A stretch of 52,204 nt of DNA, filler included, from Malassezia furfur (GCA_052055015.1; 2 parts of 2 records of this genome joined end to end with filler, not necessarily neighbours in it); one strand, 5' to 3'. Positions 10,678 to 24,438 are shown, counted from the whole stretch's first letter. A program made the numbers and translations. The notes: generated from the letters alone by a model not told the origin.

Positions 10678-11615
10678 ATGTCCAACTTCCTGAACAACTT
10701 GACCGGCGGTGGCCAGAACGACCAGGGCGGTATGTGTAGATTTTAAAGGAGCATGCTTGCTAACCAACAGGTGGCTTCGCCAACAACCTTCTGCACAAGG
10801 TGGCCGATAAGGTCGGCAACCACGGCCAGGGCGGCCAGGGCGGCCAGGGTGGCCTTGGTGGTTTTGTTAACAACCTGATGGGCAACAACAACCAGGGTGG
10901 CCAGGGCGGCTACGGCGGCAGCCAAGGTGGCTACGGTGGCAGCCAGGGCGGCAGCTATGGTGGCAGCTCGGACAGCTACGGCAGCAACCAGGGCGGCAAC
11001 TTCGGCAGCAACTCTGGTGGCTACGGTGGCAGCCAGGGCGGCTACGGCGGCAACTCGGACAACTTTGGTTCGGGCGGTAGCGGCGGCTACGGCGGCGGCT
11101 CTGACAACTTCGGTGGCTCGTCGGGCGGCTACGGCGGTGGCTCCGACAACTTCAGCTCCGGCGGCAGCGGCGGCTTCGGCGGCGGCGAGTCCGGTCGTCA
11201 CCACCACCGTCACCACGGCGGCGGTGGCAATGACAACTTCGGTGGCAGCTCCGGCGGCTACGGCGGCGGCTCCGACAACTTCGGTGGCTCGTCGGGCGGC
11301 TACGGCGGTGGCTCCGACAACTTCGGCTCCGGCGGCAGCGGCGGCTTCGGCGGCAACTCCGGCGGCTACGGCGGTGGCTCCGACAACTTCGGTGGCTCGT
11401 CGGGCGGCTACGGCGGTGGCTCTGACAACTTCGGTGGCAACCAGGGCGGCTTCGGCGGCAACTCTGGTGGCTACGGTGGTGGCTCCGACAACTTTGGTGG
11501 CAGCCAGGGCGGCTACGGTGGTGGCCAGGGCGGCTACGGTGGTGGCCAGGGCGGCTATGGCGGCGGCCAAGGCGGCTACGGTGGCGGCCAGGGCGGCTAC
11601 GGTGGCAACTACTAA
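10678..11615 (+). CDS. Glycine-rich low-complexity (prion-like) repeat protein, about 298 aa
   Basis: ATG 10678 (MSNFLNNLTGGGQNDQGG) and a 41-nt intron at 10730-10770 (GTATGT...GCTAAC...CAG) join the ORF-track frame. Strongly biased codon use (GGC/GGT, TAC, AAC, TTC). No signal peptide. Confidence 0.85.
10895..11612 (+). repeat. Coding tandem repeats: 42-nt GGYGGGSDNFGGSS-type units and 21-nt GGYGG(G/S)Q units
   Basis: Near-identical copies of ggcggctacggcggtggctccgacaacttcggtggctcgtcg and ggcggctacggtggtggccag are directly visible. Confidence 0.95.
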
Positions 11616-16962: not shown

Positions 16963-17442
16963 CTATTCGGTCGCATGGTCTCGCTCCGGCGTGTCGGTCG
17001 AGTGGGCGGTTCGCGACTCGCTCGCTTGCAGCATCTGGACGAGCTGTTCCCGTACCTGGTGGGCGACGCGACCACGAGGCCCCAGCAAGCCCTCGCCGTC
17101 GCTGACACCGGCCGCCTCGGATGTTGCTTGTGGTGTAGCCAGTTTTTCGACTAGGTCGGGAAAGAGCGGATTTTGGTCCAGCTCGCGCAGTAGGTCACTG
17201 TGCCGCAGGCGTGCATCGCGAAAAACGTAGTGGTCGGGCCGCTTCTTTAGAGCGTCCATCATGGCGGTGTCGGCTTGTTCGACAAACGCCGCGTGGTGCG
17301 CACTTTGCTGGAACTCGTGTAGGATCTGCTTGCGGATCAGATCAAAGTGTCCCTGGCGCTTGAACTCTTCGACGAGCGCCTCTGGTGTCCACTGCATCGA
17401 CGGCGCAGCCTGCTTGTCTTGCGCTGCGGGAGACTCGGACAT
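16963..17442 (-). CDS. SHG1: BOD1/Shg1 (COMPASS-associated) domain protein
   Basis: LVEEFKRQGHFDLIRKQIL matches the Shg1/BOD1 N-terminal signature. Confidence 0.7.
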   Translation of the reverse strand: MSESPAAQDKQAAPSMQWTPEALVEEFKRQGHFDLIRKQILHEFQQSAHHAAFVEQADTAMMDALKKRPDHYVFRDARLRHSDLLRELDQNPLFPDLVEKLATPQATSEAAGVSDGEGLLGPRGRVAHQVREQLVQMLQASESRTAHSTDTPERDHATE

Positions 17443-17669
17443 GTCTGGAGTCAGTGTGCTCGACAGGACGCCGGGCGCAAGTCAGAAACCGATGAATCCA
17501 CAATAGCGTGCACCACGACCGCATCTGACACTTTGTACACTGTGTCGCGGCAGGCTTTCGCCAGGATGCACGCCTTCGGTCCGCCCATCGGAGATGTTTC
17601 ATCCTCGTGGCCCACGGCAGCGACGTACTCTCTGGGTGTTAGTCTGTCCACACGCGGAAGAGGGGGGAA

Positions 17670-17766
17670 AGATCAGACAAGGCTGAAACTGATAACAAAG
17701 ACGTATTCTCCATCTTTACATGCAGAGTAATTCTAGAGCTTTGGTACAATGTGGTTCATCATACAG
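17670..17766 (-). ncRNA. Box C/D snoRNA with two 18S rRNA guides (snR41-like D guide; SNORD45-like D' guide), intronic
   Basis: C box ATGATGA at 17762-17756 and D box CTGA at 17676-17673. The 13-nt guide at 17678-17690 is antisense to 18S CAAGGCUGAAACU, and the 14-nt guide at 17727-17740 is antisense to 18S GUAAUUCUAGAGCU, followed by a degenerate D' (CTGC). Flanked by a GTAAGG donor (17792) and an ACTAAC...CAG acceptor (17632). Confidence 0.85.
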
Positions 17767-17902
17767 CGGGGATTGGGGGGGCGACACCTTACCTTCTTCA
17801 CAGCGACATGACGGCACAGAGGAAAACCCGGCCGCGGCCGCAGGCGCACGTGACACCGGTGTGGTCTGGGCGGCACGCCCGCACGGCGAGGGTGTCCGTA
17901 CC

Positions 17903-19351
17903 ATGTCCTCGTTTGAAAGTTGGCAGTCTCCGCTCTCGAGCCGCTATGCGAGCAAAGAGATGTCGTCGCTCTTCTCGAATGCGACGCGTTTCGGCACGTG
18001 GCGCGAGCTGTGGCTGAACCTTGCGATCGCCGAGAAGGAGCTGGGTTTGCCCATTCCGCAGGAGGCCATCGACCAGATGAAGGTGCACCTCACGCTCGAC
18101 GAGGAGCAGATGAAGCTCGCAGCCGAGGAGGAGAAGCGCCGTCGCCACGACGTCATGGCTCACGTCCACGTCTTTGGCCAGGTCGCCCCCGCGGCGGCGC
18201 CGTTCATCCACCTCGGTGCGACGTCGTGCTATGTCACCGACAACGCGGACCTGATCTTTTTGCGCCGCGGTCTGGACCTGCTTCTGCCGAAGCTGGCACT
18301 GGTGATCCAGCGTCTGGCATCGTTTGCGGACAAGTACCGCGACCTGCCCACGCTTGGTTTCACGCACATGCAGCCCGCGCAGCTGACGACGGTCGGCAAG
18401 CGTGCGACGCTGTGGATCCAAGACTTTTTGTGGGACCTGCGCAACCTGAAGCGTGCGCGCGACGATCTCGGCTTCCGTGGCGTGAAGGGTACGACCGGCA
18501 CGCAGGCGAGCTTCCTGCAGCTCTTTGACGGCGACCACGACAAGGTGGAGCAGCTCGACGAGCGCGTCACGGCGCTGTTCGACTTCCCCTACGCGCTGCC
18601 GGTCACCGGGCAGACGTACCCCCGCAAGATCGACATTGACGTGCTGTCCACGCTGGCGTCCTTCTCGGCGTCTGCGCTGAAGATGGCGACCGACATCCGC
18701 CTGCTGTGCCACCTCAAGGAGGTGGAGGAGCCGTTTGAGAAGGACCAGATCGGCTCGAGTGCGATGGCGTACAAGCGCAACCCGATGCGCAGCGAGCGCG
18801 TGTGTGGCCTGGCGCGCTGGCTCGGCAACACGTTGAACAACGCGCGCGAGACGCACGGCGGACAGTGGATGGAGCGCACGCTGGACGACAGTGCGAACCG
18901 CCGCCTGTCGATCCCCGAGTCGTTCCTGACCGCCGACGTGATCTTGACGCTGCTGCAGAACATCACCGAGGGTCTCGTGGTGTACCCCGCGATCATCAAG
19001 CGGCACATCGACGCCGAGCTGCCGTTCATGGCCACCGAGAACGTGATTATGGCTATGGTGCGTGCGGGCGGCGACCGGCAAGAGTGCCACGAGCACATCC
19101 GTGTGCTGTCGCACCAGGCGGCGCGCGTCGTCAAGGAAGAGGGCGGCGAGAATGACCTGATCGAGCGCATCCGCAACGAGCCCTACTTCGCGCCGATCGT
19201 CTCGCGCCTCGACGCGCTGCTCGACCCCAAGAGCTTCACGGGCCGTGCGCCCGAGCAGGTCGACAGCTTCCTGAAGAAGTGGGTGCAGCCTGCGCTCCAG
19301 CCGTACGAGGCGCAGCTCCAAAGCGCCACCAAGGCCGAGCTCTCGGTGTAG
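17903..19351 (+). CDS. ADE13: Adenylosuccinate lyase
   Basis: Motifs [26 protein letters not shown] and the fumarate-lyase signature [11 protein letters not shown]. Intronless. Confidence 0.97.
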
Positions 19352-23961: not shown

Positions 23962-24438
23962 ATGGCGTCCGCGGCACCGGGCGCGACGGCGGGCGGCGCG
24001 GGCGGCGCGGACGTTGCCGCGGCGACTGCGGCGACGGCATCCACTACGCCGCTTGCACCAAACACCACAGCGCCGAGCGGTGCGCCGCTCTCAGCCGCGT
24101 CGCTCGATGCGTCGCTCGCCGAGCTGGCGACGACGTTGCTTCCTGCCACGCGGCATGCGGGAGACACGCTGCTGGAGCGCGTGTACGTGCACCACTGACG
24201 CAGGATGTACGCGCTGTACTACGATAGCGATGCGTCCGAGGCATTGGACCAGCTGGATGCGCGGCTCGCAGAGCTGCAAAAATTCCTACGAGACACGGGG
24301 TTGAGCGGTATTCCGTTGACCACCGACGCGTCGCGCGCGACCGATGTCCCTGCCGAGACGCGAAGTACGTTTGAGATGCGTGCGCGGCTCAGCGATGCGA
24401 CGGCGCTGGTGTCCAGTATCTTGCGGGCGGACGAATAG
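23962..24438 (+). CDS. Hypothetical protein (Ala-rich N-terminus, helical C-terminus)
   Basis: ATG 23962. A 21-nt intron at 24183-24203 (GTACGT...CTGACGCAG) removes an in-frame TGA and joins ORF 24205-24438. Confidence 0.7.

Follow-up and report, generated by a model that had tools for sequence, protein, structure and literature searches.

A predicted pair of snoRNA-bearing introns ahead of SHG1 in Malassezia furfur, resembling a compact fungal snoRNA cluster III

In a 52,204-nt stretch of Malassezia furfur DNA (GCA_052055015.1; two parts of two records joined end to end with filler, hereinafter the window), the minus strand between the divergent genes ADE13 and SHG1 carries signals for two adjacent introns, each holding a predicted box C/D snoRNA. 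We propose, at a probability of roughly 70%, that both introns belong to one transcript, most likely continuing into SHG1, and that the pair represents fungal snoRNA cluster III without snR51. The locus seems to be the known snR41-snR70 cluster, compacted into the SHG1 leader around a micro-exon of 3-5 nt. Papers are cited by accession.

Results

A predicted dual-guide snoRNA within a 161-nt intron

An earlier note on this DNA had read a dual-guide box C/D snoRNA within a minus-strand intron, and re-reading the sequence located every motif where that note had placed it. The putative intron (17632..17792, minus strand, as are all features below except ADE13; 161 nt; hereinafter intron 1) is delimited by a GTAAGG donor (17792-17787), an ACTAAC branch site (17643-17638) and a CAG acceptor (17634-17632). 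Its length had been described as about seven times the local mode, which holds. Of 38 candidate introns shorter than 45 nt, 19 connect open frames that run to 50 codons or more on each side. Counted once each, these are 16 distinct introns, 21-41 nt long and most often 22 nt, a mode that intron 1 exceeds about sevenfold. Donor..branch..AG arrangements of 20-29 nt number 25 on both strands of the 52-kb window, compared with about four per strand in shuffled sequence.

Folding the entire 161-nt intron reveals no significant structure (z = -0.14). A 5-bp pairing between donor and branch site in this fold is absent from the relatives described below and was dropped. A nested 22-nt mini-intron (GTGTGG..CAG, 17653-17632) was rejected because no such donor exists in the relatives and GTGTGG departs from what is usual locally.

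Within intron 1 lies a predicted box C/D snoRNA of about 96 nt (17671..17766; hereinafter snoRNA-1), a dual guide of the snR41-II / Afu_455 / CD9 type. The RUGAUGA and CUGA motifs that mark the 5′ and 3′ ends of such RNAs are represented by the C box ATGATGA (17756..17762) and the D box CTGA (17673..17676). The 14-nt D′ guide AGCTCTAGAATTAC (17727..17740), complementary to 18S GUAAUUCUAGAGCU, is followed by a T and a degenerate D′ box CTGC (17722..17725); the 13-nt D guide AGTTTCAGCCTTG (17678..17690), complementary to 18S CAAGGCUGAAACU, is followed by a T and the D box. A degenerate C′ box ATGGAGA (17707..17713) lies between the two halves. Each guide is an antisense element of at least 10 nt, ends 1 nt before its D or D′ box and sets position 5 on a methylation site already known in rRNA. 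GC content is 0.43 across snoRNA-1 and about 0.61 around it.

No terminal stem was seen beside the C and D boxes of snoRNA-1, whose flanks are pyrimidine-rich and whose consensus fold contains none. Many intronic snoRNAs dispense with a terminal stem, and its absence here fits splicing-dependent processing. The Afu_455 model of Rfam is likewise without annotated pairs.

To represent 18S rRNA we used eukaryotic 18S-like DNA present as contamination in prokaryote genome records (hereinafter stand-in 18S). The earlier description of two perfect antisense elements to conserved 18S is borne out in 10 eukaryotic stand-in sequences: the D′ guide forms 15 contiguous pairs in all 10, and the D guide forms 14 pairs in nine and 12 pairs in one. 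The guide/18S duplexes reach -22.5 and -22.8 kcal/mol, compared with -13.2 to -19.7 kcal/mol for shuffled guides (best of five shuffles per locus), and the exact 13-mer D target is present in 10 of the 16 stand-in loci that reach far enough. Counted from the 18S start, the A selected by the D′ guide under the +5 rule is nucleotide 152-156 or so in most stand-ins (a few carry insertions), and the G selected by the D guide is nucleotide 1118-1121 or so, with 1096 for one of three measured; these positions fit N. crassa Am154 and Gm1122.

The target assignments made earlier prove right when judged from the 18S pairing, the +5 positions and the published N. crassa and yeast sites. The D target, the first G of CAAGG, is the yeast Gm1126 site, for which snR41 is the guide (PMC4344503), and N. 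crassa 18S-Gm1122, which Table 1 of PMC2780460 assigns to CD9 with S. pombe snR41-II and S. cerevisiae snR41 as counterparts. The D′ target, the second A of GUAAUU, is the human Am159 site and N. crassa 18S-Am154, assigned in the same table to CD17, the homologue of human U45A/C.

Rfam yields no match in the window at gathering thresholds. The best match is Afu_455 (RF01860), aligned end to end over 17671-17766 on the minus strand at 40.4 bits (E = 2.2e-5 in a local search, 0.0029 for the 52-kb window as a whole); this supports the proposed snoRNA by E-value but stays under the gathering cut-off of 48, and the D′ half aligns poorly. Afu_455, equivalent to N. crassa CD9 and of the S. pombe snR41-II type, is intron-encoded and similar in length, has C and D boxes in common with snoRNA-1, and carries an identical D guide (AGUUUCAGCCUUGU-CUGA) for the Gm1122/Gm1126 site; it differs in the D′ region. 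The snR41 model (RF01218), whose cut-off is 50, reaches no more than 17.7 bits (E = 3.3), and SNORD45 gives no match in the flagged region at E up to 10.

Both guides and the intron signals are conserved in two relatives

Scanning metagenomes with a pattern composed of the D guide and D box returned at least 115 matches in at least 114 stretches. Among the matches listed, a C box lies no more than 110 nt upstream in 35, and the other 80 are not snoRNA-like. The D′ element is of the ..GGCATTCCTC..-type, as in the Afu_455 consensus, in 27 of these 35 family-like loci (again among the matches listed) and of another kind in six; only two loci, hereinafter L004 and L026, have the GUAAUU-site D′ guide. 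More relatives may exist beyond the matches listed. L004 and L026 are syntenic with the window, with ADE13 divergent upstream (89% identity to the window over 115 aa in L004, 70-84% in L026) and SHG1 downstream (40-45% identity between the window and the relatives). The conservation argument made here covers these three genomes.

In the three-way alignment, the D′ guide is identical at 14/14 positions and the D guide at 13/13, compared with 11-21% in flanking sequence; the flanks within intron 1 are identical at 4/28 and 6/29 positions (14-21%). The spacer and D box are conserved at 5/5 positions, the C box and C′ box at 6/7 each, and the donor GTAAG at 5/5 against 4/28 in the flank; the D′ box reads CTGT in L026. 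Intron 1 takes the form GTAAGT..(CTAAC or CTTAC)..CAG in the relatives, at positions matching those of the window, and the same family-level similarity to Afu_455 recurs in L004 (40.4 bits) and L026 (38.5 bits). The comparison provides strong evidence that the predicted snoRNA is functional, that both of its guides are under selection and that the intron around it is conserved. The dual-guide box C/D snoRNA that the earlier note had placed in this intron is supported by its boxes, 18S duplexes, Rfam match and conservation, and lies between conserved splice signals.

A second predicted snoRNA of probable snR70 type

Downstream of intron 1 we predict a second box C/D snoRNA, about 125 nt long and snR70-like (17482..17605; hereinafter snoRNA-2). 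It comprises a C box AGGATGA (17599..17605), a D′ guide CGATGGGCGG (17581..17590) followed by an A and a D′ box CCGA (17576..17579), an extra-pairing loop GTGTACAAAG (17531..17540), a C′ box TGTGGA (17497..17502; TG(T/A)GGA across the three genomes), an 11-nt D-side element TTCATCGGTTT (17486..17496) and a D box CTGA (17482..17485). Two conserved blocks are identical at 17/18 and 19/21 positions, the stretch TCCGATGGGCGGACCGAA is invariant, and the internal domain spans 71-73 nt. Departures from box consensus are AGGATGA, CCGA and TGTGGA in snoRNA-2 and the D′ box (CTGC/CTGT) in snoRNA-1. Searched up to E = 10, Rfam matches nothing in the region 17420-17640.

Position 5 upstream of CCGA in the D′ guide is set opposite the C that directly follows the G of CCGCCC within 18S TTGTACACACCGCCCGTCG. 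Of the 12 stand-in 18S loci long enough to cover this sequence, 10 carry it exactly. The guide forms only 10 bp, one of them a G-U pair, and places the Cm1639-equivalent C of 18S ..ACCGCCCGTCG.. at position 5, as expected of snR70. We take the targeted C to be E. coli C1402, yeast Cm1639 and human Cm1703, partly on the basis of the E. coli numbering. Human U43, the counterpart of snR70, is the guide for Cm1703.

An invariant GTGTACAA, starting at 17540, is complementary to the 18S bases just 5′ of the target, (C)TTTGTACAC, leaving one unpaired A between the two duplexes. This loop pairing amounts to -13.7 kcal/mol, compared with -7.1 to -12.5 kcal/mol for shuffles. The internal domain adopts a similar predicted fold in the three species, made up of a basal stem and two hairpins, one GNRA-capped and the other presenting GTGTACAA, which is unpaired in a loop in the folds of the window and L004. 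The sequence of the basal stem differs in each species and its pairing is kept, indicative of covariation.

The target in the decoding centre, the very short D′ guide, the divergent C′ and D′ boxes, the stem between D′ and C′, the loop pairing just upstream of the target and the place after snR41 are all common to snoRNA-2 and S. cerevisiae snR70. The two differ in that snoRNA-2 shows no detectable sequence similarity to Rfam models, has the C box AGGAUGA and measures about 125 nt, the yeast RNA being about 164 nt long. According to PMC3116282, yeast snR70 has a guide among the shortest, divergent C′/D′ boxes with a stem in between, and, in the part from D′ to C′, a conserved loop that stimulates methylation and pairs directly upstream of the target; because its features, including the D′-C′ stem with a conserved loop complementary to rRNA upstream of the target, match this description, snoRNA-2 is very probably an snR70-type guide. 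The sites Cm1402, Cm1639 and Cm1703 correspond to one another, and Cm1639 is guided by snR70 in yeast (PMC2794176).

For the D-side element TTCATCGGTTT, the best rRNA duplexes are no better than those of shuffles, and one 11-bp match to 18S with two G-U pairs is broken in L004. Modelling indicates that this element may instead pair with the D′ guide of its own RNA through a 7-bp invariant helix. A complementarity of 9-11 nt between the 5′ element of snoRNA-2 and variable region V4 of 18S did not exceed that of shuffles and was dropped.

A putative micro-exon and a second intron lead into SHG1

The second putative intron, which contains snoRNA-2 (17445..17628, 184 nt; hereinafter intron 2), has a GTACGT donor (17628-17623), a CTGAC branch site (17454-17450) and a CAG acceptor (17447-17445). 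In all three genomes its donor stands 3-5 nt past the first acceptor (GTACGT in the window, GTATGT in L004 and GTACGT in L026), and from this succession of acceptor and donor signals we infer a putative micro-exon AGA of 3 nt (17629..17631), with counterparts of 5 nt in L004 and 4 nt in L026. Intron 2 of the relatives reads GTATGT/GTACGT..CTAAC..TAG. Its acceptor lies 1-2 nt ahead of the aligned SHG1 ATG in three of three genomes, and 2 nt ahead in the window. The two introns are laid out almost alike across the three genomes: donor and C box are 22-33 nt apart, D box and branch site 20-28 nt, and branch site and AG 5-8 nt.

The SHG1 coding sequence (16963..17442, minus strand), for a COMPASS subunit, matches Pfam COMPASS-Shg1 (1.4e-11; residues 23-94 on profile positions 2-72). 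On the plus strand, Pfam (ADSL_C 1.4e-23, Lyase_1 7.5e-22) confirms the divergent ADE13 coding sequence (adenylosuccinate lyase; 17903..19351) that had been named as the neighbour, and its ATG is only 110 nt from the donor of intron 1. In the putative first, non-coding exon, the upstream ATG pointed out earlier at 17809, the only one there, does open a 3-codon ORF, ATG TCG CTG TGA (17798..17809); this uORF has 3 codons in L004 and 8 in L026 and stops before the donor in both.

The earlier note had described one intron of an apparently non-coding host, which only "may run into SHG1". The first part of this description is not supported, as a second predicted snoRNA and a second intron, both missed in that note, reach to 2 nt from the SHG1 ATG, and the non-coding reading of the host is probably wrong; the second part was a hint that can now be strengthened. 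SHG1 pre-mRNA is most likely the host, because the second snoRNA intron ends 2 nt ahead of the ATG and the layout is common to three genomes. The other possibility, a lone snoRNA intron in a dedicated non-coding host with SHG1 having its own promoter and a start further downstream, would be in keeping with the 3-codon ORF of exon 1 and with fungal cluster hosts being usually non-coding (PMC3596301, PMC2780460), and the published cluster III hosts, described in PMC3596301 as having no long ORFs, speak against SHG1 as host. We nevertheless consider it unlikely that the host is non-coding: in three genomes the second snoRNA and its splice signals fill the space to 2 nt before the SHG1 ATG, and only about 40 nt past the snoRNA-2 D box would be left for a separate SHG1 promoter and leader.

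The extreme size of the micro-exon counts against our preferred explanation, since an exon of 3-5 nt is sterically awkward and its two ends may be difficult to splice simultaneously. This difficulty would vanish if donor 17792 alone were functional, spliced to either acceptor (17632 or 17445), or if one 348-nt intron held both snoRNAs, with no true micro-exon in any of these cases. PMC3596301 offers such a reading for exon-less cluster introns, and the products reported in it always lack intron I first. A strong local-consensus donor is kept 3-5 nt past acceptor 1 in three genomes, in surroundings that are not conserved, and one snoRNA per intron is usual, two snoRNPs in one lariat needing an extra cut to come apart; we judge it improbable that the second donor is not used.

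That the locus yields an unspliced polycistronic precursor, cut by RNase III and exonucleases, with splice-like motifs that are chance or relics, has a precedent in S. cerevisiae and species closely related to it, which make the same cluster in this way (PMC3596301). Here all four splice-site sets are positionally conserved in three genomes against diverged flanks, and we estimate from base composition a chance of about 1e-4 for a GTAAG within about 40 nt upstream together with an ACTAAC..YAG within about 50 nt downstream. Combined with the lack of visible terminal stems in snoRNA-1, this makes an unspliced precursor highly improbable, and two introns removed from one transcript remain the reading we adopt.

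Relation to fungal snoRNA cluster III

Cluster III, snR41-snR70-snR51, is present in nearly all fungi examined in PMC3596301 and lies in introns in Basidiomycota, Euascomycetes and Zygomycota. For several ascomycete groups that paper describes internal exons that are small or absent, with apparent stepwise 5′-to-3′ splicing, and most Euascomycetes carry a U45-associated intron inserted in the cluster. We read the present locus as a compact form of cluster III because an snR41-type RNA is followed by an snR70-type RNA, each in its own intron, an order found in all three genomes. Gene order, intronic location as in Basidiomycota and the tiny or absent internal exons are in line with the published cluster. 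Unlike it, the locus has a last exon that is apparently the protein-coding SHG1 and not part of a non-coding host; exon loss is reported there for Ascomycota and not for Basidiomycota, and here a putative exon of 3-5 nt is kept in three genomes. A further difference is that no snR51 candidate was found in the window, either by Rfam or by a crude search for 11-mers complementary to rDNA next to NTGA, in which the one hit accompanied by a plausible C box was the D guide of snoRNA-1.

Among individual guides, S. cerevisiae snR41 (RF01218) resembles snoRNA-1 in its D guide to Gm1126 and its place as first member of cluster III. The second guide of the yeast RNA, for Am541, is absent from snoRNA-1, and the yeast gene is not intronic; the combination of guides does differ from that of S. 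cerevisiae snR41, as had been suspected, with Am541 and Gm1126 in yeast and a GUAAUU-site D′ guide here. In N. crassa, Am538 is mapped to snR41 in a table of PMC2780460. The D′ guide of snoRNA-1 instead has its target nucleotide, core antisense CUCUAGAAUUAC and one-base spacer in common with human SNORD45A/C (U45) and N. crassa CD17. A CD17-type RNA is a separate snoRNA of about 73 nt that has this guide ahead of its D box and a 26S guide besides; in snoRNA-1 the guide precedes the D′ box. The CD_17 family, which is of the U45 type, is reported only from Pezizomycotina (PMC5824354).

Discussion

If the RNAs are made and all four splice sites are used, expression of the locus may proceed as follows. 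The transcript would begin in the short divergent promoter between ADE13 and SHG1 with a non-coding exon 1 containing the uORF. Removal of intron 1 would release the snoRNA-1 of about 96 nt, whose D guide would direct 2′-O-methylation of the 18S G equivalent to yeast Gm1126 and whose D′ guide would direct methylation of the A equivalent to human Am159 and N. crassa Am154. The AGA micro-exon would then be joined to exon 1, and removal of intron 2 would release the snoRNA-2 of about 125 nt and leave the SHG1 ATG 2 nt further on in the mRNA. Through its short D′ guide and extra-pairing loop, snoRNA-2 would guide the methylation of that C in the decoding centre which corresponds to yeast Cm1639. 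Debranching and trimming by exonucleases probably release each snoRNA from its own excised lariat.

The metagenome loci hint at where the D′ guide of snoRNA-1 may have come from. Among the matches listed, in 21 of the 33 other family loci the snR41-type D guide is preceded, at a distance of 229-340 nt and on its own strand, by a CTAGAATTAC guide with a D-like box; no such upstream CTAGAATTAC guide is present in the remaining 12, some of which have only about 300 nt of flank. An upstream U45-type snoRNA in these loci agrees with the U45 intron insertion described in PMC3596301. A bolder interpretation, which we hold to be possible but doubtful, is that snoRNA-1 is a chimera of two cluster neighbours and that SHG1 expression depends on ordered, near-recursive removal of two introns across the micro-exon. 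A U45-type guide and its box would then have become the D′ half of an snR41-II-type RNA, and the output of a COMPASS subunit would be coupled to three 18S methylation guides. The chimera could have arisen by deletion-fusion of neighbours; conversely, an ancestral dual guide could have been split in Ascomycota. Lineage-specific second targets are common according to PMC5824354, and target transfer between snoRNAs is described there as "much more uncommon".

The arrangement was not seen in listings of the literature on Malassezia snoRNAs and on micro-exons of snoRNA host genes, of which PMC8476143 concerns the intronic snoRNAs of RPL7 and NOG2; Table S14 of PMC5824354, on lineage-specific targets, might list the D′ target. 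Relative to the texts consulted, a U45-type guide on the D′ side of an snR41-type RNA, an apparently protein-coding host and a 3-5-nt exon in a lineage with introns of about 22 nt would be new, as predicted from the sequences compared here. Current understanding is not overturned by any of these findings.

For snoRNA biology, the locus would offer a clean natural case of methylation guides re-sorted between cluster neighbours, moves of a kind that PMC5824354 calls uncommon. The 18S site equivalent to Am159 gains a candidate guide in a lineage where CD_17 is reported absent, and snoRNA-2 would add an unannotated snR70-type snoRNA that curated models missed. The locus would also provide a test case for how a spliceosome tuned to introns of about 22 nt deals with snoRNA introns of 161 and 184 nt and a 3-nt exon between them.

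snoRNA-2 and the short upstream ORF

The putative intron 2, which ends just before the SHG1 coding region, carries an unannotated snR70-type box C/D snoRNA (snoRNA-2; 17482–17605, minus strand) whose internal stem shows covariation and which also has a loop for extra pairing. Searching 17420–17640 against Rfam at E values up to 10 gave no match to snoRNA-2, which is predicted to guide modification of the decoding-centre Cm1639-equivalent. An 11-nt element preceding its D box (17486–17496, minus strand) is nearly invariant in three genomes, the window and the two syntenic metagenome relatives L004 and L026. A search for rRNA targets of this element gave none that was convincing; the element can form a 7-bp helix with the D' guide of snoRNA-2 itself (CCGATGG with TCATCGG).

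A short uORF (17798–17809, minus strand) has aligned counterparts in both relatives and spans 3, 3 and 8 codons in the window, L004 and L026, respectively. The motif G(C/T)CATG, conserved in all three genomes, precedes the uORF, which in each of them ends shortly 5' of donor 1, the donor of the snoRNA-1 intron (GTAAGG in the window). Once spliced, the uORF stop would fall 10 nt before the SHG1 ATG.

Intron candidates and weak Rfam matches in the window

Intron candidates across the window, among them those at 24183–24203 (plus strand), 29989–29968 (minus strand) and 27243–27203 (minus strand), are mostly 21–31 nt long with the pattern GTRCGT..CTGAC.CAG. Some longer candidates, two of them 41 nt, contain the stronger branch site CTAAC, which is also used in both snoRNA-1-type introns whose branch site is clear, and other long candidates have CTGAC or CTGAT.

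Two further Rfam matches are weak. The match to plant MIR7526 at 10924–11036 (plus strand; score 29.8 bits, cut-off 110, E = 0.04) is most likely due to chance. A U6 match at 17676–17717 (plus strand; 15.5 bits, E = 0.27) lies on the strand opposite snoRNA-1, is the reverse complement of its D-guide region, and likewise looks like chance.

18S complementarity and the snR41-type family

Eukaryotic 18S-like sequence occurs in at least 49 contigs of prokaryote species-representative genome records (L115–L163), several from isolates labelled Streptomyces, Nocardia or Rhodococcus, and looks like contamination. One of these stand-in 18S sequences (L144) contains GAGGAATGCCT, a complement of the D' element AGGCATTCCTC that is common in Afu_455-type RNAs; the site lies about +1420 from the GUAAUU site and near the yeast Gm1572 region. 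Among the matches listed, the complement of this D' element was not found in the other stand-in sequences.

At 21 loci among the matches listed (L010, L017, L018, L025, L031 and 16 more), a separate U45/CD17-type snoRNA stands directly upstream of the snR41-II-type snoRNA, 229–340 nt from the snR41-type D guide, and combines a D' element of CGAACAATCCAA type with the D guide CTCTAGAATTAC. An earlier study describes a U45 intron inserted into cluster III in most Euascomycetes (PMC3596301), and the arrangement at these loci agrees with that reported insertion.
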